Of a DNA stretch of 40,123 bases, positions 1 to 35,581 are shown piece after piece; the stretch's first letter is position 1; every line of letters begins with the position of its first letter. The notes under the pieces were generated by a model. It worked only from the letters and a program-made list of their open reading frames with translations. It made no database searches and was not told where the DNA came from. Made by a program: the position numbers and the translations under genes. Source of the stretch: a virus (Duplodnaviria > Heunggongvirae > Uroviricota > Caudoviricetes); the IMG/VR virus record IMGVR_UViG_2537562231_000015, positions 1-40,123 of that record. One strand, given 5' to 3'.

Positions 1-1188
1 TTATCTGCTCCAACATCTCGTGTTGCGGCGGTCCCTAACTGGAGCGCATTTCGGAAGGCTGATACATCAGAAATATCAGCTCCATTAGCCGATTTCTGCA
101 TAGCTCCGGAGGCTTTATTTATCGTTTCTCCCAAACCAAGGTATGTGAGAAGACCAGCTACATCCTTTCCACTCAAATTAGTCAGCGTATTGTCCAGCGG
201 TTGTTTACCTGCCAGTGCATTAAGCATTGTCGTGGCAAAGTTCGGGTCATTCCCCAGCGCCGCCGCCAGTTCGTTCAGTGTATCCAGTGCCGCAGGTGCA
301 GAACCCACCATTGCCGCAATCGCCGATTTCACAAATGCCGTGGTGGCAATCTGTGTATTGTTGACCGACTGTGCCGCAGTAGGTGCGGTTGGCGTTCCGG
401 TGAGTGCCGGACTCGACAGCGGCGCTTTCAGTGCCAGCGCATTGTTAATGGTGGTACTGAATTTCGGGTCATTGTTAATGGCTGCGGCAATTTCTTTCAG
501 CGTGTCCAGCGTGGCTGGCGCACCATTAATCAGGGTCGTCAGTGCCGCCTGAACAAACGCGGTGGTCGCAAGCTGCGTTGTATTATTCCCCGCCGCTGGC
601 GTTGGCGCTTTGGGGGTTCCGGTAAACGTCGGGCTGTCTTTTGGCGCATACTGTGAATGCGGGTCCGGTGCGGCAAGATGTTTTGCCATCTGATCATCCG
701 CGTACACCTTCAGCTCCAGTACCTTATCATCCACATACTTGCGGGTTGCCAGCACTACGGCAGGGTCAATTTTCAGTGTGATATTGTCCGTACTGCTGGT
801 AATCAGCACCATGCGCACGGTCTGGGTACGCCCGCTGCCTTCAGCCAGTTGCGGTTTATAGCTTTCCGGGCAGTTCCCCACGGCAATCAATGCCCCTGAC
901 TCATCAAACAGGCCCACTTCACGTATCCACCAACCGCCCTCGTTTTCAGGGATCACCTGTTCAGCAATAATCTGGCTGCTATTCTGCGGGTCGATATAAA
1001 GCATATTCAGCGCAGCCCGGCGTTTCTCATTTACCAGTGCCGTCTGCTTTGCGTCCGGCGTTGGCAATACTCCGCCGCCATCGCCCACCGCCATATGGGT
1101 AATTTTTAGCGGCACACCGAGCGCGGCGGCGCTGGCAAGTTTCGCCGCGCCAATATCCGTCAGCAGGGTATAAAATTTTGTGCTCATG
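1..1188 (-). CDS. H: Tail fiber protein (P2 gpH-like), 5' part only; gene continues beyond window start
   Basis: Minus-strand frame open from ATG at 1186-1188 to the window edge; translation MSTKFYTLLTDIGAAKLASAA... resembles P2 gpH N-terminus; lies downstream of gene I as in P2. Confidence 0.8.
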
Positions 1189-9629: not shown

Positions 9630-11396
9630 ATGAACACCACACTGACACCCGCAGATCTCGATCCCCGTCGGCAGGCCATGCTGCTGTACTTTCAGGGATA
9701 CCGCGTAGCCCGCATTGCTGAAATGCTGGGCGAGAAAGTTGCAACCGTTCACAGCTGGAAAAAACGCGACAAGTGGGGTGACTATGGGCCGCTGGATCAG
9801 ATGCAGCTCACCACCGCCGCACGCTACTGCCAGCTCATCATGAAGGAGCACAAAGAAGGGAAAGATTTCAAAGAGATTGACCTGCTGGCGCGCCAGTCTG
9901 AGCGCCACGCGCGGATCGGCAAGTTTAACAATGGCGGCAACGAAGCCGACTTAAACCCTAACGTCGCCAACCGCAACAAAGGCCCGCGTCGTCAGCCGGA
10001 AAAGAACGTTTTCACTGATGAACAGATTGAGAAGCTGGAAGAAATCTTCCATTCCTCCATGTTCAACTACCAGCGCCACTGGTGGGAAGCCGGAAAAACC
10101 AACCGCATCCGCAACCTGCTGAAGTCACGCCAGATCGGCGCGACCTTTTACTTTGCCCGTGAAGCCCTGATTGACGCCCTGCTTACCGGACGTAACCAGA
10201 TTTTCCTTTCTGCCAGTAAGGCACAGGCTCACGTCTTTAAGCAGTACATCATCGACTTCGCCAAAGAAGTCGAGGTGGAGCTGAAAGGCGATCCGATGGT
10301 GCTTCCTAACGGGGCCACGCTTTACTTCCTCGGCACCAATGCCCGCACGGCCCAGAGTTACCACGGCAACCTGTATCTGGATGAATATTTCTGGATACCG
10401 AAATTCCAGGAGCTGCGCAAAGTGGCTTCCGGTATGGCTATTCACAAAAAATGGCGACAAACCTATTTTTCCACGCCATCCAGCCTGACCCACAGTGCTT
10501 ATCCGTTCTGGTCCGGTGCGCTGTTCAACCGTGGGCGCAACAAAGCCGATAAGGTGGACATCGACCTGTCCCACAGCAATCTGGCCCCCGGCCTGCTGTG
10601 CGCAGACGGGCAATACCGCCAGATAGTCACCGTGGAAGATGCGGTGCGCGGCGGCTGTAACCTGTTCGACCTTGACCAGTTGCGCATGGAGTACAGCCCG
10701 GACGAATACCAGAACCTGCTGATGTGCGAGTTTGTGGACGATCTCGCGTCCGTGTTCCCGCTCAGCGAACTGCAGGCGTGCATGGTGGACAGTTGGGAAG
10801 TCTGGACCGACTTTCATGCACTGGCCCTGCGCCCGTTTGGCTGGCGCGAGGTGTGGATCGGTTATGACCCGGCAAAAGGTACGCAGAACGGCGACAGCGC
10901 CGGATGCGTGGTGGTGGCACCGCCAGCCGTGCCGGGCGGTAAGTTCCGCATTCTTGAGCGTCACCAGTGGCGCGGGATGGACTTCCGCGCCCAGGCTGAC
11001 GCCATCAAAAAACTGACTGAACAGTACAACGTGACCTACATCGGCATCGACTCGACAGGTGTCGGCCACGGGGTTTACGAGAACGTGAAAGCGTTTTTTC
11101 CAGCCGTCCGGGAGTTTGTCTACAACCCCAACGTTAAAAACGCCCTGGTACTCAAGGCCTACGACATTATCAGTCACCGCCGTCTGGAGTTTGACGCCGG
11201 GCACACCGACATTGCGCAGTCATTCATGGCAATCCGTCGCGCAACCACCGCCAGTGGCAACCGCCCAACCTATGAAGCCAGCCGCAGCGAAGAAGCCAGC
11301 CACGCCGATCTGGCTTGGGCAACGATGCACGCACTGTTTAACGAACCGCTGCAGGGCGAGTCCGCCAATACCAGCAATATTGTGGAGATTTTTTGA
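9630..11396 (+). CDS. P: Terminase large (ATPase) subunit P
   Basis: 588-aa ORF; N-terminus resembles P2 gpP (RRQAMLLY..QG.RV..IAE); divergent from O. Confidence 0.9.
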   Translation: MNTTLTPADLDPRRQAMLLYFQGYRVARIAEMLGEKVATVHSWKKRDKWGDYGPLDQMQLTTAARYCQLIMKEHKEGKDFKEIDLLARQSERHARIGKFNNGGNEADLNPNVANRNKGPRRQPEKNVFTDEQIEKLEEIFHSSMFNYQRHWWEAGKTNRIRNLLKSRQIGATFYFAREALIDALLTGRNQIFLSASKAQAHVFKQYIIDFAKEVEVELKGDPMVLPNGATLYFLGTNARTAQSYHGNLYLDEYFWIPKFQELRKVASGMAIHKKWRQTYFSTPSSLTHSAYPFWSGALFNRGRNKADKVDIDLSHSNLAPGLLCADGQYRQIVTVEDAVRGGCNLFDLDQLRMEYSPDEYQNLLMCEFVDDLASVFPLSELQACMVDSWEVWTDFHALALRPFGWREVWIGYDPAKGTQNGDSAGCVVVAPPAVPGGKFRILERHQWRGMDFRAQADAIKKLTEQYNVTYIGIDSTGVGHGVYENVKAFFPAVREFVYNPNVKNALVLKAYDIISHRRLEFDAGHTDIAQSFMAIRRATTASGNRPTYEASRSEEASHADLAWATMHALFNEPLQGESANTSNIVEIF

Positions 11397-12430
11397 TGGG
11401 AAAGAGTAAGAAAAACCGCACTGCGGCGACGAATCAGATCCAGCATAAAAACCAGACTACAGCCGAAGCATTCAGCTTCGGCGATCCCGTTCCAGTTCTG
11501 GACCGCCGAGAATTACTGGACTATGTGGAATGCGTACAGATGGACCGTTGGTATGAGCCGCCCGTCAGCTTTGACGGACTGGCGCGCACCTTCCGCGCTG
11601 CCGTGCATCACAGTTCCCCGATTGCAGTAAAGTGCAACATTCTGACCAGTACCTATATCCCTCATCCGCTGCTCAGCCAACAGGCTTTTTCGCGTTTTGT
11701 ACAGGACTATCTGGTATTTGGTAACGCCTATCTGGAGAAACGCACGAACCGCTTCGGTGAAGTTATCGCCCTTGAACCTGCGCTGGCAAAATACACCCGA
11801 CGCGGGTTAGACCTGGATACCTACTGGTTTGTGCAATACGGCATGACCACGCAGCCGTATCAGTTCACGAAAGGCAGCATTTTCCATCTGATGGAACCGG
11901 ACATAAATCAGGAGATCTATGGCCTGCCCGGCTATCTTTCTGCCATTCCGTCAGCCCTGCTCAACGAGTCCGCCACGCTGTTCCGCCGCAAGTATTACAT
12001 TAACGGCAGTCATGCAGGCTTCATCATGTACATGACCGATGCCGCGCAGAACCAGGAGGACGTGAACAACCTTCGCAATGCGATGAAAAGCGCCAAAGGA
12101 CCAGGTAACTTCCGCAATCTGTTTATGTACTCGCCTAATGGTAAAAAAGACGGTCTTCAGATTATCCCGTTGTCAGAAGTCGCAGCGAAGGATGAGTTTC
12201 TGAATATCAAAAACGTGAGCCGTGATGACATGATGGCTGCGCACCGCGTGCCGCCGCAAATGATGGGGATAATGCCTAATAATGTTGGGGGTTTTGGGGA
12301 TGTGGAGAAGGCCGCGAAAGTATTTGTTATGAATGAGTTACTACCAATTCAAAAACATATTCTGCAACTTAATGAATGGGCTAAAAAAAACATCATCTCA
12401 TTCAGTGAATACTCTGTGGAGTGTATGTAA
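11393..12430 (+). CDS. Q: Portal protein Q
   Basis: 345-aa ORF overlapping P stop; P2 gpQ size and position. Confidence 0.9.
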   Translation: MMGKSKKNRTAATNQIQHKNQTTAEAFSFGDPVPVLDRRELLDYVECVQMDRWYEPPVSFDGLARTFRAAVHHSSPIAVKCNILTSTYIPHPLLSQQAFSRFVQDYLVFGNAYLEKRTNRFGEVIALEPALAKYTRRGLDLDTYWFVQYGMTTQPYQFTKGSIFHLMEPDINQEIYGLPGYLSAIPSALLNESATLFRRKYYINGSHAGFIMYMTDAAQNQEDVNNLRNAMKSAKGPGNFRNLFMYSPNGKKDGLQIIPLSEVAAKDEFLNIKNVSRDDMMAAHRVPPQMMGIMPNNVGGFGDVEKAAKVFVMNELLPIQKHILQLNEWAKKNIISFSEYSVECM

Positions 12431-12441
12431 ATTGAATAATG

Positions 12442-12460
12442 GCAGGTACTATACCTGCCA
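12442..12460. terminator. Hairpin between convergent Q and the GmrSD-like gene
   Basis: GGCAGGTA-cta-TACCTGCC 8-bp stem; U-rich tract only moderate on either strand. Confidence 0.4.
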
Positions 12461-12466
12461 CTGAAC

Positions 12467-14248
12467 TTATATTTTAGCAAACGTTTCTAACGCCAAGCTA
12501 TCTGTTCTTTCTTTTATTAATGAATCATCCCATTTATGTTCTCTTGCTTCTGACTCACTAACAAACTCTGTAACTAATTTTAAATCAGATTTTTTATAAG
12601 ATTCTATTTTTTTGTGCAACTCATAATTCTTGCAATCTTCATTAAGTGAAAAACAGAGTGGTAGTAAATTACCAATCATACCCACGACTGACTCGTTAGT
12701 TTTGCTTTGAGATGATATGTGTTCCAAAGAAACTATATCCATTTTTAACTCTCGCGTCCCTCGTCTGATACGTTCCAACTTGTCAAAAATATAAACAATC
12801 AACTTCCTTTGCCCAGACTTTTTATTTGTATAAACAATATTCTTTGAAAATGCTTGTTTGAATATATTTTCTGAAGGCCCTTTCTGTGTAAAATAATCTA
12901 ATGCGTCATTAATAACACCCTCAACATCTCTTTTATTTAATGCCTTATTCATTCTTACTGCTAATACAGAATATTTTGCATCGATTCCAGATGGTCTTAG
13001 ACGACATACTGCATTAAACTTAAAGTGAAATGACTCTAAGGACTTCAAACATTCTATCAGCATTGATTGTGTAAGGGCTCTCGGTTTCTCTTTACGTTTT
13101 CTAAGTAATGAGAGTACAAATGGTCGAGGAATACTCACATTAAAAATCTCGAATGCTTTTAACGAGTTGTAAATTTCACGCTGATCAGGTTGAGGCCAGT
13201 CATCTGTATTTGGCGCTATTATTTTACAGTATAATTCAACATCATCATATAATTCGTTCAGAAATGATGCTGATGACAATAAAGTATTCTCATCTTGAAT
13301 CTCACGTTTAAAAGCACGATAAAGTTGATCTTCTCCAATATAATTATACTTAGAAAGCCACCACGTTCTAATATAATCAGCAATAGTGCTATTACTATCC
13401 CTAGACTCAATTTGAGTAACGATATAATCCCATTTTGTTTTTGCAATATCTACCGGATATGTTTGAGTGCAAGTTTGGAATACTTTATTCTTTATCAAAT
13501 CAATTGAACTTAAGTTTATCCCTCGAGCATTCAACACTTCAAAAATATCATAAGCATCATCCTCCTTACCTACAGATATTTTTACCAACTTCAAATAATT
13601 GGTAATCATTCTATATACAGCAGTCAAACAAAATATATAATCTTGGTTATTATAATGTTTTGCACCATCTCGCAACAATGCAGAACAGAGTGATTTCCTC
13701 CCTAGTTTTCTAGAAAGAAAAATTCCTGCATAACTTATACGTACATCCTCTTCACAAGATTCATCAACTTGATGCTCTTCGCGATCTTGATATTTTAACT
13801 TAAAATATGTTCTATCGCTATTTTTTGCTAATTTTTCAATAAATGTCTCACCATTTGAGGCTAATTGGCTTCTGCTAAATGTAGGACTCACAGTAACGAT
13901 ATATGTTTTAAATATATCATCCGCTAATGAATCTTGCCCTAAGGAACGCAATTTACGCGATATTAATGAAAGCAATATAGTAATAACTGAAAATCGTTGT
14001 TGTCCATCAACCACTTCTAATACATCATCACTATCTGCTCCAGAAAGAACAATAGTCCCTATAAAATATTCTGAACACTCCAAGTTCTGTCCATCTTCAT
14101 TCAACCTTATGTTTCTGACAATATCTTGCCATAATTCTTCAAGCTGAAGCTTTTCCCAACTAAACTCACGTTGATTACGTGGAATAACATATCTTTGTTT
14201 TACAGATAGAATGTTTTTTATATTTAGTGGTGTTGCATCAAAATTCAT
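12467..14248 (-). CDS. GmrSD-family (DUF262/ParB-like N-terminal, DUF1524-like C-terminal) putative modification-dependent nuclease
   Basis: 593-aa ORF; N-terminal YVIPRNQREFSW and VVDGQQR motifs typical of DUF262; C-terminal LEHI...GNLLPL resembles the DUF1524 His-Me finger; markedly AT-rich versus flanking phage genes. Confidence 0.65.
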   Translation of the reverse strand: MNFDATPLNIKNILSVKQRYVIPRNQREFSWEKLQLEELWQDIVRNIRLNEDGQNLECSEYFIGTIVLSGADSDDVLEVVDGQQRFSVITILLSLISRKLRSLGQDSLADDIFKTYIVTVSPTFSRSQLASNGETFIEKLAKNSDRTYFKLKYQDREEHQVDESCEEDVRISYAGIFLSRKLGRKSLCSALLRDGAKHYNNQDYIFCLTAVYRMITNYLKLVKISVGKEDDAYDIFEVLNARGINLSSIDLIKNKVFQTCTQTYPVDIAKTKWDYIVTQIESRDSNSTIADYIRTWWLSKYNYIGEDQLYRAFKREIQDENTLLSSASFLNELYDDVELYCKIIAPNTDDWPQPDQREIYNSLKAFEIFNVSIPRPFVLSLLRKRKEKPRALTQSMLIECLKSLESFHFKFNAVCRLRPSGIDAKYSVLAVRMNKALNKRDVEGVINDALDYFTQKGPSENIFKQAFSKNIVYTNKKSGQRKLIVYIFDKLERIRRGTRELKMDIVSLEHISSQSKTNESVVGMIGNLLPLCFSLNEDCKNYELHKKIESYKKSDLKLVTEFVSESEAREHKWDDSLIKERTDSLALETFAKI

Positions 14249-14368
14249 AACTTATCCTCAGAGACAACAAATTGATAATAATGTCCTATTCAAATGGCTA
14301 ATGATATGACATAAAAAAAGAAAAATGCAATGTACTACAAGAATATCAGTAAACGTTTCTAGCGCGCG

Positions 14369-14387
14369 CTCGTATCCCCGCCACGCC
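14369..14387 (-). other. cos site of the P2/186-like prophage (19-nt cohesive-end sequence)
   Basis: Minus strand reads GGCGTGGCGGGGATACGAG flanked by AAAGCGGGC and CGCGCGC, homologous to P2 cos GGCGAGGCGGGGAAAGCAC and oriented toward Q. Confidence 0.6.
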
Positions 14388-14432
14388 TGCCCGCTTTATG
14401 TAGTGGTTTTCATGCAGGTGCATGATCTACGC

Positions 14433-14458
14433 AAAAGCCCGCCAGTTCCGGCGGGCTT
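14433..14458 (-). terminator. Putative intrinsic terminator
   Basis: AAGCCCGCC/GGCGGGCTT 9-bp stem; on the minus strand followed by TTTTG. Confidence 0.4.
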
Positions 14459-14727
14459 CAGCTAAAACGATCCTCAAACGATCATGCGGATTCATGCGGC
14501 ATAGACATGCACCTGTGCGCCTTTAATCAAACATGGAATAATTATTTGTTCAGCGGGAGTAGCAATATAGCGGCGGCTATTGGTTTAGAAGGGCTTATGA
14601 TGACTGTTTTTGGTTAGAGTTTGAACGCCCAACATCGCCGGGCGGTGGTATTACTACATCATGGCAATGAGAAGGGGTGAACCCTTTGCCAGTTTGTCCG
14701 ACGATGATATCCATCCAGAGTAAGCGT

Positions 14728-15387
14728 TTATTCTGTTGAGATTGTAGATATTTCGGCTTGTTTTTTCTCTATGTACATCCGACATTCCGCAAGGCATTTA
14801 CCTACGGCACCACCGAAGTTTGGCCCTGACGAAAGCAGCAATGCATCGACATTCTTGATTGATTCAAAGAAGGAAGGTGAGGTTTCTGGATTAAGGTATG
14901 TCATCAATAACATCCTTGCTGAAAGGGTGCGATGCGATGATGTAATGTAGCTTTCATGCGCTGCATTTCTCTTATCAATAAAATCGTTATTACCCTTAAG
15001 AATGTAATCCATTGCAAGGTTATAATCGTTTTTGTACCTATTAGATTCAAGCGCTAAGGATAGGTACTGGGCACATGATTCCCGCACGTTCCGACATTCT
15101 TCTTTTTTTATCTCAATTTCCGTAGCAATTTGAGTTTGCACTTTCAGTGCTTTGGTTTGCTGCGCAATATTTTTGTCGAATTCAGATGATTGCCGTTTTG
15201 AGGTGATTTCAAATTGGCGGTGTGAACGATTCATAGCCCGCCATGCAACAAAAGCAGTTGCCGCAGCTGGCAGAACAGCTTTTGCGAGGTCAAACCATGG
15301 AGTCAGGGGCTCCTTTTGACTCGCAATTTGTACCGTTACCACGTCTTTAGCGGGCTTCAGTACTTCCAATAACTGAATGATGTCCAT
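14728..15387 (-). CDS. Hypothetical protein with one predicted transmembrane helix (cargo gene in the old/tin position)
   Basis: 219-aa ORF; hydrophobic segment LAKAVLPAAATAFVAWRAM; no family recognised; lies between cos and the tum/DinI module. Confidence 0.5.
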   Translation of the reverse strand: MDIIQLLEVLKPAKDVVTVQIASQKEPLTPWFDLAKAVLPAAATAFVAWRAMNRSHRQFEITSKRQSSEFDKNIAQQTKALKVQTQIATEIEIKKEECRNVRESCAQYLSLALESNRYKNDYNLAMDYILKGNNDFIDKRNAAHESYITSSHRTLSARMLLMTYLNPETSPSFFESIKNVDALLLSSGPNFGGAVGKCLAECRMYIEKKQAEISTISTE

Positions 15388-15588
15388 TGCCTTTTTCCTG
15401 AGAAAAAGAAACCATCATAGCAAAAAGCCTGCCGCTTGCTAGGGGCTTCCCGCGCCTAACCCTTCACGAAATTGAATCCTCTCCGGCCTTTTCGTTATCT
15501 GTCCGCATTGAGGGCGGCTAACGCCTCGCACGGCTCGTTGTTCAACCTTGCTGGCGCCAGAAGCAAGTTCAGACGCCAGCAACGTTTC

Positions 15589-15822
15589 TTAATGCAGCCA
15601 GCTGTCGTCTTCCCACACCTTCTGCATAATTTTCATCACTTGTTTTCTTTCTTCGTCCAGTTGCAGTCCGGTCAGTTCCACACCGTTAGAGCTACCTTTG
15701 CGGATACGAATTACCGTTTTGGGATACAGGGGGCGCAGATTGCGGTAAAGCTCGGATTCAAGGGCGTCCAGGATAGACTGGCTAATCTTCTGCTCTTTAT
15801 CGATCATTATTTCAATGCGCAT
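15589..15822 (-). CDS. DinI-family protein
   Basis: ORF 15589..15894 trimmed to MRIEIMIDK... preceded by GAGGTGA; aligns along its length with E. coli DinI (MRIEV.I.K...IDAL..EL...WE...W). Confidence 0.8.
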   Translation of the reverse strand: MRIEIMIDKEQKISQSILDALESELYRNLRPLYPKTVIRIRKGSSNGVELTGLQLDEERKQVMKIMQKVWEDDSWLH

Positions 15823-15832
15823 AAAAGTCACC

Positions 15833-16021
15833 TCAACTGATGACATCCATTGAGCGGTTGTATTCGTGGGTTCTGATTTTTGCCATGAGTTCATCTGTTA
15901 GTTCAGAAACCCACTGCAAAGCCAGCCCCTTCTCTTCATCACTACACTCACTAGCCGCTACAAGCTTAAGAAAAAAATCAATGCGCTGGAGCTTCAAAGA
16001 CTCCAAAAAATAGTCCTGCAT
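15833..16021 (-). CDS. Small protein, possible Tum-like antirepressor N-terminal module
   Basis: 62-aa ORF starting MQDYF with GGAGGAAAG SD; LexA box immediately upstream; overlaps the DinI-like start by 11 nt in another frame. Confidence 0.45.
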   Translation of the reverse strand: MQDYFLESLKLQRIDFFLKLVAASECSDEEKGLALQWVSELTDELMAKIRTHEYNRSMDVIS

Positions 16022-16064
16022 CTTTCCTCCTATGACACCACAAGAAATACTGTATACATAACCA

Positions 16065-16080
16065 CTGTTTATATTTACAG
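16065..16080. promoter_or_regulatory. LexA box (SOS operator)
   Basis: CTGTTTATATTTACAG fits CTGT-N8-ACAG, about 45 bp upstream of the MQDYF start. Confidence 0.6.
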
Positions 16081-16174
16081 TATATAATAATCTTACTGAT
16101 GTAAAACGTTTTTTTACGTTCATCAGCCTGATATTCCTGGTATTATTAAGAGCACGAATTGTTAACCCGCGTAA

Positions 16175-18589
16175 TTAATACAGGTTCCGCCACTTATCAT
16201 CTTCCCGCAAACGCTGGTTCCGATAGAAGATACGCAAGCCTGCTCCTGACGGAATACTGCCACCGCGAAGGAGCAAATCGACTTCTTTCTCGCTGCCATC
16301 AAATCCTCTGGACTTCAGTTCATAGACGAGCTGCTGATGCTGATGATCTGTAATTCGCTGTTTGTAGTCTTTACGCCGTTTCGGTTTCACCAAGCGCAAC
16401 CTTGCTGCCAGCTCCCGGCGATCTTTTTTGCTCATACTGTGCAGGTAATCGTGCAATTCCTTGTCATCCATGCGGGTAATGTCCGTTCTGGAGCCCCCAT
16501 CAGCTGATTTGTCTTTCCCTTGTTGGTACAAATTTTCAGCAAGGGGACAGTTATTGCCACGAGTCCAAGGGGCGCAAGCGCCCTGGTCGGCTGCCGCCTC
16601 CTGAACGTCAACGGCTTTACGAACCATTTTCCACTTCACTGCATGAGTGCAGATCTTGCCCTCTGCAATGGGTGACCAGATGCCATAAATACGAATACCG
16701 TGATCGCCATAGGCGGTCGGCTCTTCGTTAATTTCATAAGCAGTTCTGATGAGGTGATATTTACGGGGAACCAGTACACCTCCCTGCTTCATGATATAGG
16801 TGGCAAAACAACCAGCATCAGCAGCAGCCAGAATGGCATCAAGGCGCGGGTTATCCAGTACCGGCACACCTGCTTTTTTGTCACCCTGCTGCCTTGCCGC
16901 CTGACCAGCCAGCAATCGCAGTTCACGGTAAGCCTGACGCCCCGGAATGCCAAAGAAGCGGAATTGCTGAACACGATGCAAAGACGCCCAGGCATTCACG
17001 TATTCAGCATTATCACGCAGAGATTTACCCGTTTCCTTGCTGATCTCGCCAGCCAGACCACGCCCGTCAATGTTCTTGCTGATATATTTCGCGATGTAGC
17101 TTGTCGGCGTTCCTTTGCGCGGGTTAATCAACTCAGACTTAAAGCGTGGTCCCGTGTTATTCCCCAGCTCCTCGCGGTCTTCACGAATGGCAAACTTACG
17201 CAACAAAGCAGTAATGGCGCGGCGATCTTTTTTGCGCATAAAACACAACAGGTGCCAGTGAACTGTACCGTCATGATGCGGCTCAGCCACCCGCACGCCA
17301 TACCAGCGCAATCCGGCTTTGTGCATAGCCTTACGAAATGCAGCAAACATGCCGACCAGATAATCGCTGCTTTGTCTTACTGTCGCGTTGGTCCAGGTCG
17401 GGTTTGGCCTGCCGTTATTTAGCGTGGAATGGAAACGTGACGGACAGGTGATGGTGTAGAAAACGGCGCAGTCACCACGCATTTCCGCGATAAGCTCCAG
17501 ACCTTTAACGCAGGCCATCATCTCATTGCGGCGATGCGCCGGGTTGCTGCTGCTGGCGTTTACCACATCCTCCATGTCCAGCATGTCGCCGTCTTCGTTC
17601 ACCAGTTCATGAGAACGGAAAAACTCCAGCGACTTACGGCGCTGCTCACGTTTATGCATCACGGCTTCATAGCTGACATAGGGAGATGCTTTTTTGCTGA
17701 CCAGACAGACAGCACGCAACTGCTCTTCCCGCCATTCGCAACGCATCTTCCATAATTTCCGATACCACCAGTCGGCGCACAGCATACGCGCCAGCGAACC
17801 CGGAATGAGTTCATAGGGCACAGGTTTGCGGCGGTTTCTTTTCCGGCGGAGTTGCTCAAACGCAGGCGGTATGACATCCAGTCGCAGGGTTTCTGCTGCC
17901 ACCTTTTCCCATGTCTTGCGGATTTCTTCCGGCTTAACATCATCGGAGGCGTACAAATCACCACAAGCGGCATCAAGACACATGCTCATATGCGCAGCGA
18001 CAAGGGTGGACAGGCGTTTCACCTGATCCTGACTCATTTCAGGCAGGATCAGCAGACCGTCCAGCCCTTCATGGCTTGCCATAAAACGAAAAGATGCAGA
18101 TAGCTGGCTGTCGCGTACATGCTCCAGTCGTTCCAGGCATGGCTTAATCGTCTCACGCAAATAGCGGGAATAAGCCTTTGGCCTGCCCAGGTTGCTGAAG
18201 TATTTAATACGTTGCATCAGCGGCTTGCTGATATGGGAAGGCTGGGCGTTGACATCCGCCAGAATGACCATATCCGGATTAAAACGCTGCTGCTCATGCG
18301 CCAGCTTTGCCCGGCTAATTAGCTTATCCTGCTCCATTTCGCGCTGGACAGGATCACGGGATTCATTAAAGAAATAACGCTCCCAGACCTGATCACTCAG
18401 TGCCTCGCGGCGCAGTTGTTCCTGCTCGTTATCGGCAGCGTACAGAGTGATCAGGTTTGAAAGCGCAGAAACCGGCGCAACTTCCGCCGGGTCCAGATAA
18501 GGGTTAATGGCCTTTTTCGGGCTGTTCCATGAGAATGCTGCGGCAGCCTCGTTAAAGCCGCAGCAGTTGTTCATATCGGCATGACTCAT
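16175..18589 (-). CDS. A: Replication initiation protein A (rolling-circle nicking endonuclease)
   Basis: 804-aa ORF; contains [19 protein letters not shown] and [12 protein letters not shown] matching conserved P2 gpA motifs. Confidence 0.9.
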
Positions 18590-22018: not shown

Positions 22019-23050
22019 ATGACCATCAGAAAACAGCCGAACGGAAAATGGTTGTGTGAGTGCTATCCCAATGGACGCAATGGCAAGCGCGTGCGTAAGC
22101 AATTTGCCACGAAAGGCGAAGCCATTGCGTTTGAAAGCTTCACAATGGAAGAAGTGAATAAAAAACCGTGGTTGGGTGAAAAGGATGATCGGCGACGCCT
22201 ATCAGAATTAATTGAGCTTTGGTATTCCCTGTATGGTCAGACACTCGCAGACCCCAAGCGCCTCATGGCGAAACTTAGAATTATCTGTAATGGTCTAGGC
22301 GACCCCATCGCCTCTGAGCTGACAGCCGGAGACTTTACGAAATACCGCGAAGCACGGTTAAAAGGTGAAATACGAAATGAAGATGGCACGCTTATGTCGC
22401 CCGTTAAGCCCCGCACGGTAAACCTTGAACAGCGCAATCTATCATCGGTGTTCGGTACATTAAAAAAACTAGGACACTGGTCAGCACCAAACCCGCTGGC
22501 AGGACTTCCGACCTTCAAAATTGCCGAAGGTGAGCTGGCTTTTCTTTCCACGGACGAAATCAAGCGCCTGTTGGCGGCATGTGCTGAATCTCAAAGCCCT
22601 AGCTTACTAATGATTGCAAAAATATGCCTAGCTACTGGCGCACGGTGGAGTGAAGCAGAAAATCTGCAGGGCCATCAGTTATCCAAATACCGCATCACTT
22701 ATACCAAGACGAAGGGCAAGAAAAACCGTACCGTGCCAATATCTCAGGATCTTTACAACGAACTCCCTAAAAACAGAGGAAGGCTATTCACCCCATGCAG
22801 AAAAGCCTTTGAACGGGCAGTAAAACGAGCTGGTATTGAACTGCCAGAGGGACAATGCACCCACGTTCTACGCCATACATTCGCCAGCCATTTCATGATG
22901 AACGGCGGAAACATACTGGTACTGCGCGATATTTTGGGCCATGCCGATATAAAAATGACGATGATTTACGCCCATTTTTCTCCAGACCATCTGGAAGATG
23001 CAGTAACGAAAAACCCTTTGAACTTTATATACTTGTCGAATAACATGTAA
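22019..23050 (+). CDS. int: Tyrosine integrase (P2/186 type)
   Basis: 343-aa ORF; C-terminal HVLRHTFASHFMMNGG...LGHADIKMTMIYAHF catalytic motifs. Confidence 0.9.
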   Translation: MTIRKQPNGKWLCECYPNGRNGKRVRKQFATKGEAIAFESFTMEEVNKKPWLGEKDDRRRLSELIELWYSLYGQTLADPKRLMAKLRIICNGLGDPIASELTAGDFTKYREARLKGEIRNEDGTLMSPVKPRTVNLEQRNLSSVFGTLKKLGHWSAPNPLAGLPTFKIAEGELAFLSTDEIKRLLAACAESQSPSLLMIAKICLATGARWSEAENLQGHQLSKYRITYTKTKGKKNRTVPISQDLYNELPKNRGRLFTPCRKAFERAVKRAGIELPEGQCTHVLRHTFASHFMMNGGNILVLRDILGHADIKMTMIYAHFSPDHLEDAVTKNPLNFIYLSNNM

Positions 23051-24417: not shown

Positions 24418-25051
24418 CCAATTCATGAAGGAGCGGCCAAATTGGCAAGAACGACACGCCCCCTGACCAACACAGAAGTACTGCGCGCTAAAGCGTTAGA
24501 AAAGGATCTAACGTTGCATGATGGCGATGGTCTTTTTCTACTCGTTAAAACGAACGGTAAGAAGTTATGGCGTTTCCGTTATCAACGTCCGGCAACAAAG
24601 CAACGGACAATGATGGGGCTAGGAGCCTTCCCAGCCCTTTCACTTGCTGACGCCCGACGCTTAAGAGCGGATTACCTTTCCTTGTTAGCCAACGGAATTG
24701 ACCCGCAAATTCAAGCTGAAATTGCAGAGGAACAGCAGCAAATCGCACAGGACAGTATTTTCTCGACGGTCGCCGCTAATTGGTTTCAGCTCAAAAGCAA
24801 AAGTGTTACCCCTGATTATGCAAAAGATATTTGGCGCTCATTGGAAAAAGATGTATTCCCCGCCGTTGGTGAGATGCCCGTTCAGCAGATCAAAGCTAGA
24901 ACATTGGTCGAAGCACTTGAGCCAGTCAAAGCTCGTGGGGCATTAGAGACTGTACGTCGTCTGGTGCAACGCATTAACGAAATAATGATTTATGCGGTTA
25001 ACACTGGCTTGATTGATGCAAACCCAGCATCAGGTGGGTAATGACTCCAAC

Positions 25052-25555
25052 TTATTGATAGTGTTTTATGTTCAGATAATGCCCGATGACTTTGTCATGC
25101 AGCTCCACCGATTTTGAGAACGACAGCGACTTCCGTCCCAGCCGTGCCAGGTGCTGCCTCAGATTCAGGTTATGCCGCTCAATTCGCTGCGTATATCGCT
25201 TGCTGATTACGTGCAGCTTTCCCTTCAGGCGGGATTCATACAGCGGCCAGCCATCCGTCATCCATATCACCACGTCAAAGGGTGACAGCAGGCTCATAAG
25301 ACGCCCCAGCGTCGCCATAGTGCGTTCACCGAATACGTGCGCAACAACCGTCTTCCGGAGCCTGTCATACGCGTAAAACAGCCAGCGCTGGCGCGATTTA
25401 GCACCGACATAGCCCCACTGTTCGTCCATTTCCGCGCAGACGATGACGTCACTGCCCGGCTGTATGCGCGAGGTTACCGACTGCGGCCTGAGTTTTTTAA
25501 ATGGCGGAAAATCGTGTTGAGGCCAACGCCCATAATGCGGGCGGTTGCCCGGCAT
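25052..25555 (-). CDS. insB: IS1 InsB
   Basis: 167-aa ORF matching IS1 InsB. Confidence 0.9.
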
Positions 25556-25749
25556 CCAACGCCATTCATGGCCATATCAATGATTTTCTGGTGCGTACCG
25601 GGTTGAGAAGCGGTGTAAGTGAACTGCAGTTGCCATGTTTTACGGCAGTGAGAGCAGAGATAGCGCTGATGTCCGGCGGTGCTTTTGCCGTTACGCACCA
25701 CCCCGTCAGTAGCTGAACAGGAGGGACAGCTGATAGAAACAGAAGCCAC
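25474..25749 (-). CDS. insA: IS1 InsA
   Basis: 91-aa [26 protein letters not shown]... matching IS1 InsA. Confidence 0.9.
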
Positions 25750-26411
25750 TGGAGCACCTCAAAAACACCATCATACACTAAATCAGTAAGTTGGCAGCAT
25801 CACCCATCAGGTGTTGGCATGGCCTTCGAAAAGCCAAAAAAACAAAACATGCCGACGCTTCGACCTGAAGAATTACCAAAGCTGATGCGTTCTTTAGTCA
25901 TGTCAAATCTGTCTATCCCGACTCGCTGTCTAATTGAATGGCAACTCCTGACTCTTGTGCGCCCTTCTGAAGCCTCCAGTACTCGGTGGGAAGAAATCGA
26001 TCTTCATGCAAAGCTCTGGACGATTCCTGCCGAACGGATGAAGGCTAAACGGGAACACATAATTCCTCTATCATCTCAGGCATTAGAGATTCTTAATGTG
26101 ATGAAGCCTATTAGTGCTCATCGTGAATATGTTTTTCCGAGTCGGAATGACCCAAAGAAACCAATGAACAGTCAGACTGCAAATGCAGCTTTAAAACGTA
26201 TTGGTTTTGGCGGAAAATTAGTTGCCCATGGATTACGTTCAATAGCAAGTACAGCCATGAATGAAGCTGGATTAAATCCTGATGTTATCGAGTCTGCCTT
26301 AGCCCACAGTGATAAAAATGAAGTTAGAAAAGCATACAATCGTTCTACTTATCTCGTGCAGCGAATTGAATTGATGGATTGGTGGGGAGAATACGTTAAA
26401 AATAAAAGGGG

Positions 26412-28121
26412 TTAGCCCCCCTTTTTTCTATACAATCTCAAGCACTCGTCCAATTCAATAAGTTGTGAATTACTTAATCGTTCTTTTATATAATAAAATA
26501 CATCTTTTACTGAAGCAATTTCTCTCATCGCTCTATTGCCCATTAAAACATAGTCTTGATACATTCCAATTCTGAAGAATGAATTTGCTGCGCAAGCCAA
26601 CATAATTACTTCGGTCATTGCAGGGAGATTTAAACGATTTGGCTTAAATTTATTTTTATCATATTCGTTAAAACAAGACAAAAAGTTTCTCAATGTTTTT
26701 ATATCAGCAATACCATTTGAAACATTAGTAAATGATTTATATAAATATGGAGAGCATGAATACCAATATATATCACAAACAAGTATAGAACTTCGCTTGT
26801 TCGCAAACTCAAGCCATTCACCCTTATTTCCATTATGCATTAAGTTATATAAGAAATAAAAATGCAACAACCCATTTTTATATTCTTTTTTGGATTGATC
26901 ATAGATTATCTCAATTTTGTCCATGATAGACTGCAAATCAGTGACTTCGCCTAAATTTAACATATTTAGGTATTCACTAAACCACTTCGCTATACTTTTA
27001 GCTGTAAATCCGTCTGCATTCCAGAGCCAATATTGTGCAGATATCTCTGCAACCATTACACCCGATGTTTCCATCACCCAATTAACAGACTCTCTTTTTT
27101 GACTGTAGTTTTTACGGCAAAAATTTATTATCACATGGCGAAGAAGTCGAAGCAATCCAGAGTAACTGAAGTGAGGTTCGCCAAAAAGAACCAGACAATC
27201 ACCAACAGGATTGTAGGCTTTCGAGATCATTGCATCAAGTGGCTTAAGCTCATGGACAAAAGAAGACCTGATTTTGTATAAATTATCTAAAGCTCTACTA
27301 AGGAAGCTATAGCGGATTGGATATCTCTCTGTTTCATTGAAATAATTTTCTTCAAGATTTTTCAGTATAAAATCTTTGAACCTTTTTTGTAATCTGAATT
27401 GTTTGCCTTCAATAAGTATTGATTTAATTTTACAAACATCCTCACCAGGCATATGCTCAAATACAGACTCTAATTCACCTCTGGTTTTTTGATCGTAGTC
27501 ATCCCAATCAGACTTATAGTTATCATTTCTTTGAGACAAAGACTCCAAGGCATAGACTAACATGGAATAAGTCAGGTCAAAGTTGGTTGACAATGATTCT
27601 TTTGAATCACTAATTATTTTTAACGCTGCCATTAAAGATTTAAAGGCAGATCTATTTAGATTCACTACATCTTTAATAAAAGCAGAAAACCCAGAGACAT
27701 CATCAAATGAAACTCTTCGATTAATCTCCACTAAATATGGGGCAACTTCAAGCGCAATTTTTGAGTGATGTTTATTAAAATTTGATAATGCACATATTTT
27801 TTTAACCGATTCTTTTTCTACTCTAGCCACACAATCAAAATAGAATTCCCATAATAAAATAAATTGTTGCCTATAATCCTCATCACCAGCCCTAACTACG
27901 ACTCCAGCTTCAATTCGTTCTGGTTTTTCGGTCAGGAGAGTATAGTTTACCACATAACAGTTTATACCATCATGACTTATTTTATTTGCTTTAAAAAGAG
28001 GGGAGGTGTTTTCCACCGAGAAAGACACATCAACATTTGAATAAAAAACAAATGTGCCATCGTGTTTTTCTATTTTATCTAAATCAAAGAACACTCCAGC
28101 TGATATCTGAAACATACTCAT
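26412..28121 (-). CDS. Hypothetical 569-aa protein in the P4 int-cos variable slot (candidate anti-phage defence)
   Basis: Long AT-rich ORF with no recognised family; contains an R-x4-H motif (RSSFVH); sits where P4 carries gop/beta/cII. Confidence 0.6.
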   Translation of the reverse strand: MSMFQISAGVFFDLDKIEKHDGTFVFYSNVDVSFSVENTSPLFKANKISHDGINCYVVNYTLLTEKPERIEAGVVVRAGDEDYRQQFILLWEFYFDCVARVEKESVKKICALSNFNKHHSKIALEVAPYLVEINRRVSFDDVSGFSAFIKDVVNLNRSAFKSLMAALKIISDSKESLSTNFDLTYSMLVYALESLSQRNDNYKSDWDDYDQKTRGELESVFEHMPGEDVCKIKSILIEGKQFRLQKRFKDFILKNLEENYFNETERYPIRYSFLSRALDNLYKIRSSFVHELKPLDAMISKAYNPVGDCLVLFGEPHFSYSGLLRLLRHVIINFCRKNYSQKRESVNWVMETSGVMVAEISAQYWLWNADGFTAKSIAKWFSEYLNMLNLGEVTDLQSIMDKIEIIYDQSKKEYKNGLLHFYFLYNLMHNGNKGEWLEFANKRSSILVCDIYWYSCSPYLYKSFTNVSNGIADIKTLRNFLSCFNEYDKNKFKPNRLNLPAMTEVIMLACAANSFFRIGMYQDYVLMGNRAMREIASVKDVFYYIKERLSNSQLIELDECLRLYRKKGG

Positions 28122-28412
28122 TCCTTAAACTCAATTGGATCAATCTATCTATATTAACGGATATATTAACAGAACAAAATAATCCTATGCAGTAGCCTAG
28201 CTACTCAAACAATTTCATTACGTTTGTAAGCAATACTCTCCCCACTACACCGTCGAAAGGCGGCTATTTACCACTCCCCTCAGAAGCCATCAGCGGCACA
28301 CTTACCAACATTACCGCGCGACGTCAGGCACCTCCCCTATCCCCCCCAGCCCCTTCCCGACGGTGCTCGGGCGCAAAAAACATTAGTAACGAGCACCAAC
28401 CGGGGGCGCGCA

Positions 28413-28431
28413 GTGCTTTCCCCGCCTCGCC
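28413..28431 (-). other. cos site of the P4-like satellite (identical to P2 19-nt cohesive end)
   Basis: Minus strand reads GGCGAGGCGGGGAAAGCAC exactly, within AAAGCGGGCGGGCGAGGCGGGGAAAGCACTGCGCGC. Confidence 0.8.
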
Positions 28432-28532
28432 CGCCCGCTTTGCGGGGCGGTTTTAATGCAGTTGCACTGACACGCTCAGACCGCGCCGGGAATGGCGCGG
28501 TCTGCAGAAAATGAGGCAGGGAAACGCATGCA

Positions 28533-28566
28533 AAGCCATGCACCTTATCGATGCATGGCTTTTTTC
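28533..28566. terminator. Hairpin with flanking A/T runs between cos and psu
   Basis: AGCCATGCA...TGCATGGCT stem followed by TTTTTT on the plus strand and preceded by an A-run (possible bidirectional terminator). Confidence 0.4.
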
Positions 28567-28595
28567 AGTAAAAACGGGCGGATTTTCGGGGAATT

Positions 28596-29168
28596 TTACA
28601 CAGACTGACGTGATGCCAGTTGCGCACTTTTACGCGAAAAAATCATGTTCTGCGCAGGGGTGAATTTTTCACGGCTGTCATCCACCGAAGCCGCGTCAGG
28701 CCTGAATCCGATGGTCGTTAAAATGTCGCTATCCTGTGCGGAATAATTAATTTTTTCACCCTTCGCAAGCCAGGACAGGAGGGCTTCACGCAGGGCATCT
28801 GTGGCACGCTGTATGGCACAGTTTCGGGCAATGGCCGTCAGATCACTGTAGCCCATCAGCTCCGGTGCCAGTGCCGCCGCCAGTGCTGTGCCGTGCTGCT
28901 GCATAAAATCATTCAGCCGGTCGCGGATGCTGATGTGCTGAACGGCTTCATGCGAACGAATATAACGACCGGCGGCCTGATTCACCTGCCATTTTCTGAC
29001 TTCGATAATATTGCGTAATTCGTCCAGGCGACTGACGTTTCTGCCTTCTCCTGACAGAAGCCGCAGATATTCCTGTTCGGCCGCAGCCAGCTCATTTTTG
29101 CGTTGCAGCCATGCTGCTTTGTTATTCTGACAGGTGTCAAAGGCCTGCTGTAAGGCTGTGCTTTCCAT
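28596..29168 (-). CDS. psu: Psu (polarity suppression / capsid decoration) protein
   Basis: 190-aa ORF, same length as P4 Psu, in the sid-delta-psu-cos arrangement. Confidence 0.85.
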   Translation of the reverse strand: MESTALQQAFDTCQNNKAAWLQRKNELAAAEQEYLRLLSGEGRNVSRLDELRNIIEVRKWQVNQAAGRYIRSHEAVQHISIRDRLNDFMQQHGTALAAALAPELMGYSDLTAIARNCAIQRATDALREALLSWLAKGEKINYSAQDSDILTTIGFRPDAASVDDSREKFTPAQNMIFSRKSAQLASRQSV

Positions 29169-29241
29169 CGTTATCTCTTTCTCATCATGCTGAAGAATAA
29201 AAATACGGTGTGTGGCGACGGCCGGTGTTAACCGGCAGCCC

Positions 29242-29742
29242 TCATTCCAGACGCAGCGAATATGATTGTGTTTTTAACCGTACTGGCGGCAGTTCCTGTT
29301 TTTCATGCAGGCGTTCTGCCAGTTCGTCCGGCGTGACCGGGCGGACAATGAAGCGGGTGATGGTCTGAAGCGTTTTAAACACCAGACCACAGCCCGGATC
29401 CGTGCACACATAAAAACGCTCGGTGACTTCCTGAGACAGACGCCGCGATGTTCTTGACAGTGCAAGGCCTTTACATCTCCGACAACAATATCCGGTAACA
29501 AGCATTCTTTTCGGGCGTTTCATACTGCCGGAGGCCGACGTCAGTGAATCGCGGTATCTCTGTTTGCCTGAAATGTATTCCATTCCTGAATCTTTACTGT
29601 CAGAGAAAAAGCTTTCACTCGCTTCAAATGTCGCAGAGCAATAAATATTCCGGCACTGTGCAATCATTATCTTGGTGCCATCGTCCATGAAATGTGCGCG
29701 ACGGGTGTGAGCAACATGTCCACACGACGGGCAGTAAATCAT
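29242..29742 (-). CDS. delta: Delta late-gene transactivator (tandem Ogr-like zinc finger)
   Basis: 166-aa ORF starting MIYCPSCGH with C-x2-C...C-x4-C pattern, a second Cys cluster further on; same length as P4 Delta. Confidence 0.85.
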   Translation of the reverse strand: MIYCPSCGHVAHTRRAHFMDDGTKIMIAQCRNIYCSATFEASESFFSDSKDSGMEYISGKQRYRDSLTSASGSMKRPKRMLVTGYCCRRCKGLALSRTSRRLSQEVTERFYVCTDPGCGLVFKTLQTITRFIVRPVTPDELAERLHEKQELPPVRLKTQSYSLRLE

Positions 29743-30473
29743 GACAGCAGTCCTCTGGCCTTAAGCTCTGCTCCCTGCTGGTCTATTTTGTCCTGCCACA
29801 CCTTGCGCTGTGCCGGTGTGCCTGCCACCTCATAATCCATGTGCGGGAGTGTTGCCGCTGACAGTCCGGTCAGCCGGAGAACCGGCTCGCCGGTGAGGCT
29901 GATTTGCATCTGTTTAATTTTCTGTTCCAGCGATGATTTCACCTGCTGCATGACAGCCTTTTCCGGTGCGACGTAGCCCTGATGGCCGGTGGTGTTGGCG
30001 AGCGGATTTTCCTGTACCAGGATACTCAGATGCATTGCCCGGACAAGCGCCTCACAGGTTTCATTCAGGGCGTGTTCCAGCTCATGCTCTGCATACAGAC
30101 TCAGAAGGTGATGATGTGCCTTCCGGTAGGCGGTGGCCGTGCTGTCACACGCCCCTTTCAGGCGTTCACGTTCAAAATTCAGCACCACGGCCAGATTGTC
30201 ATATTCCTGTACCAGCTCCCGGCGTGCCACGCGCTCAATGTGGCGCTGTTTCAGCTCGTCGCTCAGGACACCACCGGCTGCACGAAAGGCTGTGCGCCAG
30301 TCATCAGCGTCATTTCCGTCGGCCTGCGCCAGCGCATTTTTTTCCTGCTCTGCCCGTTCAATGGCCTTGACGGTCTCATCCATCAGTCGGGCGTTCTCAA
30401 GATGAGCGGCTCTGGCCTTTTCCAGTTGTGCCAGTGCGGGTTGCAGATATTCAGGGATGGTGTTGTCAGACAT
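29739..30473 (-). CDS. sid: Sid capsid size-determination protein
   Basis: ORF 29739..30491 trimmed to MSDNTIPEYLQ (244 aa, P4 Sid length); overlaps delta start. Confidence 0.85.
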   Translation of the reverse strand: MSDNTIPEYLQPALAQLEKARAAHLENARLMDETVKAIERAEQEKNALAQADGNDADDWRTAFRAAGGVLSDELKQRHIERVARRELVQEYDNLAVVLNFERERLKGACDSTATAYRKAHHHLLSLYAEHELEHALNETCEALVRAMHLSILVQENPLANTTGHQGYVAPEKAVMQQVKSSLEQKIKQMQISLTGEPVLRLTGLSAATLPHMDYEVAGTPAQRKVWQDKIDQQGAELKARGLLS

Positions 30474-30516
30474 TTTCCGGCTCCTCGTCACTTCAGATTA
30501 AGAAAATTGTGACGTA

Positions 30517-30573
30517 CACCGGACAACAACACGACGCATTGCAGATGTGCCAGCCCTGACACAGGAGACTCAT
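30517..30573. promoter_or_regulatory. Two TGT-N12-ACA dyads in the sid upstream region (candidate Delta/Ogr sites for Psid and a divergent late promoter)
   Basis: TGTgacgtacaccggACA at 30517-30534 and TGTgccagccctgacACA at 30556-30573. Confidence 0.35.
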
Positions 30574-35567: not shown

Positions 35568-35581
35568 AGGAGAACAACACC

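Follow-up and report, generated by a model that had tools for sequence, protein, structure and literature searches.

Which function is served by a gene without a known family that lies between the replication genes and the cohesive end of a 186/P2-like prophage, in a place where phages of this group keep exclusion genes? The question is raised by a reading frame for a 219-amino-acid protein in the window, that is, in the whole stretch of 40,123 nucleotides analysed here (IMG/VR virus record IMGVR_UViG_2537562231_000015, Caudoviricetes). The prophage in this stretch is 186/P2-like and is seen in reverse orientation, with Dam coming after the replication endonuclease gene gpA (Table 1). A first-pass annotation made from the letters of the DNA had pointed out the reading frame, and the coordinates and length that it gave agree with the ORF list, where the frame is on the minus strand and starts with ATG. 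Near-identical copies are filed in RefSeq as "hypothetical protein" (WP_097331330.1 and WP_326390007.1). In comparison with orthologues from Enterobacter and Klebsiella that are 86–88% identical, pS is about 0.35 and dN/dS is 0.13–0.15. The reading frame is therefore a real coding gene under purifying selection.

The cassette and its slot

Experiments have established the interval from gpA to gpQ as a hotspot where exclusion and defence genes are found (PMC9122126). The first-pass annotation had assigned the gene to the exclusion-gene position of this interval, an assignment that is borne out and can be narrowed to the segment from tum to cos, where phage 186 has orf97. In a prophage of E. coli STEC308 the sequences equivalent to 14337–14513 and 15517–16200 are joined with 5 bp between them. 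Because the flanks are contiguous in this empty site, the gene sits on an insertion of 1003 bp. In strain L3452210II, which has the same GmrSD gene, this very slot is filled, with the same junctions, by a gene for an HNH endonuclease. The cassette gene was found in 3 of 5,426 complete E. coli genomes, while its flanks match about 1,270; the flank on the far side (about 150 bp, 14361–14513) is common to more than 1,000 E. coli genomes and to Peduoviridae of Klebsiella, Yersinia and Salmonella. We take a moron, in the sense of Hendrix, to be an autonomous accessory transcription unit in a temperate phage. The insertion has precise boundaries and is missing from closely related phage genomes, as in STEC308, and the locus is best explained as a self-contained moron cassette, made up of a putative promoter, leader and gene, that is placed after tum/DinI and before cos in a 186/P2-like prophage.

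Table 1 Features of the locus and of the 219-aa protein. Nucleotide positions are those of the window; segments of the protein are given as residues.
Feature	Position	Strand	Basis or remark
Terminase	9630–11396	+	Gene list
Portal	11393–12430	+	Gene list
GmrSD-like type IV restriction enzyme, 593 aa	12467–14248	-	Pfam GmrSD_N and GmrSD_C; PADLOC HEC-06/Orf5, 7e-75
cos cohesive end GGCGTGGCGGGGATACGAG	14369–14387	-	First 13 bases identical to the annotated 186 cos
Backbone intrinsic terminator (predicted)	14435–14459	-	11-bp GC stem and UUUUG; fold -27.1 kcal/mol, z = -3.9
Mobile cassette, 1003 bp	14514–15516	-	Absent from an otherwise collinear empty-site prophage
CDS, 219 aa	14728–15387	-	ORF list; ATG start
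Acidic N-tail	residues 1–24		Highly conserved; followed by a linker
Hydrophobic helix	residues ~34–52		Hydropathy, alignment
Basic juxtamembrane segment and stalk	residues 53–105		
Four-helix-bundle head (predicted), variable	residues ~96–216		
Shine-Dalgarno-like sequence AGGAAAAAGG	15390–15399	-	Read from sequence; pyrimidine-rich 5' leader TTTCTTTTTCTC
Putative cassette promoter, T-tract and extended -10 (TTTTT-G-C-TATGAT), TTTTTGCTATGAT	15414–15426	-	About 30 nt upstream of the ATG
Backbone hairpin after tum/DinI, no U-run	15550–15580	-	Fold -26.2 kcal/mol, z = -5.7
tum/DinI-like gene	15589–15894	-	Pfam DinI 2.5e-22; backbone, upstream neighbour, not part of the cassette
Perfect LexA box CTGTTTATATTTACAG	16065–16080	-	Pattern search; upstream of the small orf and tum/DinI, p95-like SOS promoter
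Small phrog_698 orf	between DinI/tum and gpA		Gene list
Replication endonuclease gpA	16175–18589	-	Gene list

Read in phage orientation, the slot has the order gpA, p95/LexA box, small orf, tum, t95a-like hairpin, cassette, t95b-like terminator, cos, GmrSD-like gene and portal. From this reconstructed layout it follows that the gene lies inside the interval of the SOS operon, that the hairpin downstream of it is the backbone's and that the GmrSD-like gene stands beyond cos. The position of cos is indicated by 14453–14375, which can be aligned, at 81%, over the point where the two ends of the phage 186 genome, right and left, are joined. The predicted terminator lies 270 nt past the stop codon, in the backbone segment of about 14361–14513 that is kept in prophages without the gene, and it was retained in all compared prophages, whatever cargo they carry. 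It has the position of the annotated 186 terminator t95b, just before cos, with t95b itself falling outside the aligned 186 block, and is the predicted counterpart of t95b, which would end both p95 and cassette transcription. The terminator-like hairpin that had earlier been credited to the gene as its own consequently belongs to the phage backbone, as its conservation in gene-less prophages and its t95b position indicate.

On the other side of the cassette, the hairpin after tum/DinI stands where 186 has t95a, a partial terminator according to its annotation, and it is within the flank that is kept in empty-site prophages. The LexA box corresponds to the p95 and LexA-site annotation of 186. 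RefSeq homologues of the tum/DinI-like gene begin at the position equivalent to 15822. The first-pass annotation had described the gene as separate from the LexA-controlled tum/DinI module, a separation that is not a clean one, with the gene standing between the hairpin at the t95a position and the t95b-like terminator. The cassette is thus placed inside the LexA/p95 transcription interval, and SOS read-through, in addition to transcription from its own putative promoter, is plausible.

The promoter element recurs in the family. In nearly every family locus that was read, an element of the form TTTTT(T)G-N-TA(T/A)NAT is found about 30–37 nt 5' of the ATG, and it is followed by a leader motif, TTTCTTT, that likewise recurs in homologous loci. 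The loci with the element are 186/P2-like, lambdoid, plasmid and chromosomal, and their proteins are only 25–57% identical. Since it is retained across proteins of 25% identity and in unrelated contexts, the element appears to be a part of the mobile unit. A generic sigma-70 scan in which both hexamers were required gave no promoter at the 219-aa gene, as expected for a promoter of the extended -10 type. Most of the relatives' loci also have a GC hairpin directly before the element, whose U-run is the same T-tract, and an intrinsic terminator 3' of the gene. The order of these putative signals, terminator, promoter, gene, terminator, would be the classic moron layout. The copy at 14514–15516 has only a degenerate hairpin upstream (z = +1.2), and the terminator that follows it belongs to the backbone; it is because of this degenerate hairpin that read-through from p95 seems plausible.

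The 3' region of the cassette (14514–14727, 214 bp) is not conserved in the orthologous loci of Enterobacter and Klebsiella, its fold is no more stable than that of shuffled sequence (z = -0.7), and a functional element in it was rejected. Rfam gave no RNA family within 12300–16300.

The GmrSD-like gene is on the same strand as the 219-aa gene, 480 bp from it and in the same hotspot, so that the two could be read as the components of one two-gene system. Between them, however, lie cos and a strong terminator, and the restriction gene is on the portal side of cos as a separate cargo outside the cassette. The same GmrSD gene is seen with the HNH gene in place of the 219-aa gene, and the 219-aa gene is seen with other cargos on the portal side: a STAS-like gene and a 324-aa gene in strains PSS-15 and B27, a type IX retron (retron IX) in strain PSJ-12, an AAA_15/AAA_21 gene with DUF3226 in Enterobacter vonholyi and three unknown genes in K. 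aerogenes. In one IMG/VR contig (L030) it occurs with no cargo beyond cos at all. As five different cargos or none accompany the gene, it is not part of any neighbouring cargo system, and the distribution, together with the cos in between, effectively excludes a two-gene system with the GmrSD-like enzyme.

The protein and its relatives

The structure prediction that the first-pass annotation had proposed was run, and it gave an all-helical model with a single hydrophobic helix. The AlphaFold2 model, built from 45 sequences, has a pLDDT of 83.5; residues 1–26 are below 50 and were not modelled. One continuous helix runs from residue 29 to residue 130. Helices 134–164, 171–186 and 191–216 pack on the distal part of this long helix and form a four-helix bundle with pLDDT above 90, and residues of about 53–95 are left as a solitary stalk helix in the monomer.

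The transmembrane helix named in the first-pass annotation is marginal in the window copy. Its Kyte-Doolittle maximum over 19 residues, 1.24, falls short of the usual cut-off of 1.6, and the Hessa energies add up to +7 kcal/mol. The same segment aligns with an unambiguous transmembrane helix in more distant relatives, where about 20 hydrophobic residues reach 17-residue means of 2.0–3.05. The assignment is partly borne out, and the protein is predicted to be very probably membrane-anchored. The weakness of the hydrophobic helix in the window copy is a point against exclusion.

Lysine and arginine are distributed unequally around the helix, with 56 in the 15 residues before it and 140 in the 15 residues after it, summed over the 45 members. 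Every one of them has a net acidic N-tail, and their cysteine counts range from 1 to 6 without a bias towards even numbers. Taken together, the charge asymmetry, the acidic N-tail and the lack of an even cysteine bias point to a predicted N-out, C-in topology with the bundle in the cytoplasm. A head that is predicted to be cytoplasmic fits the sensing of an intracellular phage product, as in abortive infection, at least as well as a block of entry.

Conservation differs strongly along the chain. Mean pairwise identity is 0.61 in the N-tail (1–24), 0.50 in the stalk (70–105), 0.42 in the transmembrane helix and only 0.19–0.24 in the head (106–190). Because synonymous changes are frequent in the N-tail, its conservation must be at the level of the protein. 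A conserved membrane part combined with a diversifying head is what would be expected of a membrane-acting part joined to a part that sets specificity. The polar residues Q77, K95 and R102 are nearly invariant and follow a 3–4 heptad register on the unpacked stalk, and the transmembrane helix has a small-xxx-small spacing of Ala, Gly and Thr (PAAATAGVAW). Cysteines 98, 105, 198 and 202 are invariant or nearly so in close relatives; family-wide, only C202 is nearly invariant. A periplasmic disulfide-bonded domain and a Cys4 metal site were both dropped as candidates, given that cysteines are lost singly and that their counts have no even bias.

The description of the gene as family-less was confirmed. 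No match to the 219-aa protein was found in Pfam, NCBIfam, PHROGs, PADLOC or BFVD, and a sequence-profile search of the PDB gave none either. All 5,027 defence-protein HMMs of PADLOC-DB v2.0.0 were without a match to it. When 30 family members were run against PADLOC, only scattered matches appeared, each in one or two members and with E of at least 5.6e-4. HMM scans of the 30 relatives taken singly gave scattered noise as well, with at most four members per model (Gliadin, DUF7935; lone matches to SLATT or gop), and the matches to SLATT and 2TM-effector models were seen in single members at E of about 0.001–0.04. In tblastn searches the protein had no match among 50,697 phage records (E ≤ 0.01) and none among 72,556 plasmids (PLSDB), and none of three family members used as queries against phage isolates was carried by any sequenced isolate. 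The protein thus resembles none of the known exclusion or defence proteins, a point that speaks against exclusion.

The family is small. A single-sequence search with the 219-aa protein gave 27 clusters at 90% identity among 5.8 billion proteins, a family-profile search of the same collection gave 37 clusters, and an exhaustive phmmer/HMMER pass gave 29 representatives at 50% identity among 1.84 billion proteins. In total the family comprises about 60 clusters among the 5.8 billion proteins, and its members are all without a name and without a Pfam domain. Wherever the organism of a member is named, it is one of the Enterobacterales (Escherichia, Enterobacter, Klebsiella aerogenes, Buttiauxella). 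When the N-terminal module was searched as a profile against the 5.8-billion-protein collection, it recovered fragments of the same family only and no fusion to other domains. No distant annotated relative came from the single-sequence, full-length-profile, N-terminal-module or phmmer searches. This remote homology search had been suggested in the first-pass annotation, which had named strong homology to a replication or packaging accessory protein as the finding that would count against its proposal; no such kinship was found. Neither the accessions nor the N-terminal peptide were found in the text or supplements of the hotspot papers or of DefensePredictor.

The relatives occupy other accessory slots of temperate phages. 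A copy with 41% identity is the sole gene between primase and ogr/portal in another P2-like prophage, and a copy with 40% identity adjoins a TIR gene in a P2 remnant. The distant relatives (25–35% identity) that were looked up, four out of four, lie between Q and the holin/lysis genes of lambdoid prophages, and these Q-holin copies are associated with several unrelated types of lysis cassette. Most of the IMG/VR loci seem to be Q-holin-like, as judged from ORF sizes alone (an ORF of 229–230 aa upstream and size-matched ORFs downstream). Single relatives were found on an IncFII plasmid, next to the terminase genes of a Buttiauxella prophage, beside phiX-like genes and beside cusCFBA in a plain chromosomal context. 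The occurrence of some relatives in such plain chromosomal contexts without defence neighbours, of which cusCFBA is an example, is a further observation against exclusion.

Comparison with known proteins

The closest positional counterpart of the gene is orf97 of phage 186 (NP_052294.1), which is the distal gene of the 186 SOS (p95) operon and likewise stands between tum and cos, with t95a on one side and t95b on the other. The insertion points within the interval differ. A note in the 186 record states for orf97 that "expression from plasmid blocks 186 infection". Orf97 has 243 aa as against 219, and it resembles the 219-aa protein in having an N-terminal membrane anchor with a soluble domain of about 170–190 aa and in having no Pfam family. 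Nevertheless, the two proteins show no sequence similarity (the best BLASTP segment is 18 residues, E = 0.097), Orf97 has two N-terminal hydrophobic helices and the 219-aa protein one, and orf97 is without an annotated promoter in the 186 record, in contrast to the 219-aa gene with its own putative one.

The tin and old genes of P2 are prophage accessory genes of the same gpA-cos hotspot, with expression in the lysogen. Their products are both soluble, in contrast to the 219-aa protein with its predicted membrane anchor. Old has an ABC-type ATPase domain and a TOPRIM nuclease domain, neither of which was found in the 219-aa protein by Pfam, NCBIfam or PADLOC or in its all-helical model. Homology to Tin was looked for with tblastn against the 50,697 phage records, in which P2 is assumed to be included, and no match was obtained at E ≤ 0.01.

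P22 SieA, T4 Imm and HK97 gp15 are small inner-membrane proteins of phages or prophages that have no enzymatic domain and act at genome entry. SieA has a conserved motif on the cytoplasmic side (PMC10883804). Its sequence is unrelated to that of the 219-aa protein and it has three predicted transmembrane helices, and none of the three proteins has the long stalk and four-helix-bundle head of our model. The bundles of Tar, Tsr, PcaY_PP, TorS and NarX/NarQ resemble the model in fold only, with Foldseek E values above 0.05 and in a mixture with de novo designed bundles, and the Pfam 4HB_MCP model had no match to the 219-aa protein or its relatives. These chemoreceptor and sensor-kinase bundles are periplasmic and come with a second transmembrane helix and a signalling module; the 219-aa protein has neither of the latter two, and its head is predicted to be cytoplasmic.

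The family, its architecture and its travelling promoter are new and undescribed, while the kind of element is a known one, a prophage moron for a small membrane protein in an exclusion slot.

Possible functions of the cassette

Some anti-phage role of the protein has, in our estimate, an even chance. It is favoured because the slot and the hotspot are tied to exclusion and defence, because the distribution is patchy and mobile, and because a conserved module is combined with a hypervariable head, a design typical of anti-phage proteins. A point against exclusion is that many P2-hotspot genes without a known function are not predicted to be defensive: PMC13586616 reports that 15–32% of such proteins score as antiviral, and that in 19% of P2-like elements the main defence loci hold nothing but unknown genes. 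The most far-reaching reading, with a probability of roughly 0.3, is that the protein would be the founding member of a new single-gene anti-phage family, on a promoter-equipped cassette of 186/P2-like prophages, lambdoid prophages and plasmids of Enterobacterales, in which the periplasmic N-tail, transmembrane helix and stalk would form an oligomeric module, the rapidly diversifying cytoplasmic head would set phage specificity, and the outcome would be a block of genome entry or a collapse of the membrane. The specific mechanism that we prefer, tentatively, is superinfection exclusion at the inner membrane; the autonomy of the cassette, the relatives at other accessory positions, the promoter that travels with the gene and the topology signals count in its favour. 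The short, acidic and conserved N-tail of a single-pass inner-membrane protein would face the periplasm, and the cytoplasmic side would hold the basic stalk next to the membrane as well as the variable head with its four-helix bundle. A low level of protein would be made in the lysogen from the cassette's own extended -10 promoter and could be raised by read-through, either from the LexA-controlled p95 on induction or, in lambdoid hosts, from Q-antiterminated late transcription. An incoming phage would be stopped at or just after genome entry, and the resident phage would be unharmed.

The conserved N-tail, transmembrane helix and stalk, set against the hypervariable head, would also suit an abortive-infection protein, in which the head recognises a phage protein and the other three parts oligomerise, depolarise the inner membrane and kill the cell. 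The small-xxx-small spacing of the transmembrane helix, the register of Q77, K95 and R102, which suggests an oligomer, and the solitary residues 53–95 of the monomer model are in line with this, and membrane proteins of hotspot systems are usually read as suicide effectors (PMC9122126). Known transmembrane effectors, however, normally come with a separate sensor, and the 219-aa protein is encoded by a single gene; nor do the SLATT and 2TM-effector matches, confined as they are to single members, extend to the family. Moreover, the SOS or late transcription of the phage itself can read into the gene. Such read-in during the phage's own induction or late phase would be tolerable for a block of entry and risky for a suicide effector, which is why we prefer exclusion over abortive infection and consider the latter rather unlikely.

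A contribution to the host, as in lysogenic conversion or a fitness moron that acts in envelope stress, metal or redox handling or colonisation, would agree with the several solitary chromosomal or plasmid copies that have no defence neighbours, and the Q-to-S and cos-proximal sites also hold non-defence morons. The nearly invariant C202 could bind metal or act as a redox sensor, and one copy abuts cusCFBA. On the other hand, the cus adjacency is one case, cysteines are lost singly in many members, one of which retains a single Cys, and the gene is confined to mobile contexts and is very patchy, as the three carriers among the complete E. coli genomes illustrate. We give this explanation a low probability. 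An accessory role in the phage's own lytic cycle, for instance as a modulator of lysis timing or of the holin that is expressed on induction, appears quite improbable. It would account for the location directly between Q and the holin/lysis genes in several unrelated lambdoid lysis-cassette types and for the location downstream of the SOS-induced tum operon, with only the U-run-less hairpin at the t95a position in between. Yet most related prophages do without the gene (3 carriers as against about 1,270 flank matches in E. coli), it has its own putative promoter, usually with a terminator before it, plasmid and chromosomal copies exist without lysis genes, and in the P2-like context it is far from them.

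New immune systems have been found time and again in the hotspots of P2 and P4, and a considerable part of what these sites carry has no annotation yet. The cassette described here is unusually easy to test, being a single-gene unit of about 1 kb with a native promoter, natural controls in the form of the empty site and of other cargos, and homologues at the Q-holin position. Without exclusion, it would be one more orphan moron. If phage exclusion holds true, the cassette would add a new protein family and a new architecture to the few proteins of exclusion and defence that act at the membrane, and the tum-cos slot of 186-like phages, the site of orf97, would be a swap site distinct from the slot between cos and portal.

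Two cargo slots around cos

In the window, the segment 14361-14513 is conserved backbone; it carries the prophage cos and a terminator, and separates two cargo slots. The gpA-gpQ 'hotspot' is therefore two distinct slots that flank cos. On the portal side, between cos and the portal gene, lies a gene for a GmrSD-like type IV restriction enzyme, with a GC content of about 32%, versus about 53% in the phage backbone. Its stop codon and that of the portal gene are only 36 bp apart.

On the other side of cos, a different gene occupies the tum-cos insertion point in a second prophage. In E. coli L3452210II (NZ_CP076527.1; locus L018, 4271-4990) a gene encoding a 239-aa HNH endonuclease is found at the same insertion point as the 219-aa gene cassette, with junctions that agree within 3 bp. 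The shared point suggests a recurrent swap site. PADLOC returned no match for the 239-aa HNH protein.

A P4-like satellite (24442-39300) directly adjoins the prophage.

Coordinates of features in the window
Feature	Position	Strand	Remarks
GmrSD-like type IV restriction enzyme, 593 aa	12467-14248	-	Pfam GmrSD_N + GmrSD_C; PADLOC HEC-06 at 7e-75
Prophage cos GGCGTGGCGGGGATACGAG	14369-14387	-	inside conserved segment
Terminator in 186 t95b position	14435-14459		inside conserved segment
C202 codon, 219-aa protein	14782-14784
C198 codon, 219-aa protein	14794-14796
C105 codon, 219-aa protein	15073-15075
C98 codon, 219-aa protein	15094-15096
Prophage integrase	22019-23050
HNH_2-domain protein, 337 aa	23073-24086	+	between prophage integrase and P4-like element
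Integrase, split in two	24442-25041 + 25819-26415		P4-like satellite
Family-less gene, 569 aa	26412-28121	-	P4-like satellite, int-psu defence hotspot
Exact P2-type cos GGCGAGGCGGGGAAAGCAC	28413-28431	-	P4-like satellite
Psu	28596-29168	-	P4-like satellite
IS66 transposase	32904-34517		P4-like satellite
Alpha primase	35582-37915		P4-like satellite

Cysteines of the 219-aa protein

The protein has cysteines at residues 98, 105, 198 and 202, which fall, in the structural model, on helix 1 (C98, C105) and helix 4 (C198, C202) within the predicted bundle. All four are invariant or nearly so among close relatives. Across the whole family only C202 is nearly invariant; it and R203, which is itself conserved in most members, make up a CRxYI motif. 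C98, C105 and C198 are each lost singly in various members.

Genomic neighbours of the relatives

A 186-like prophage of Klebsiella aerogenes (L029) that also carries the 219-aa gene encodes, next to its CI repressor, a protein of 558 aa (8-1684) in which SNIPE, T5orf172 and MUG113 domains are combined. In L011 (1290-6714) and L012, two assemblies that may come from one sample, the homologue P0013 directly adjoins a complete phiX-like microvirus gene set (A, H, G, F, J, D, C, B). Either a bullavirus-like prophage has integrated there, or the sequence is chimeric with a phiX spike-in.

In the IMG/VR loci L033-L046, the family member has an ORF of 229-230 aa upstream. Many of these loci have, downstream of the family member, an ORF of 350 aa and then ORFs with the sizes expected for a holin and a lysozyme. 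The 350-aa ORF equals in length the N6_N4 methyltransferase of another locus, L025. If the identification of these ORFs holds, the Q-to-holin interval would be the site of a two-gene accessory block.
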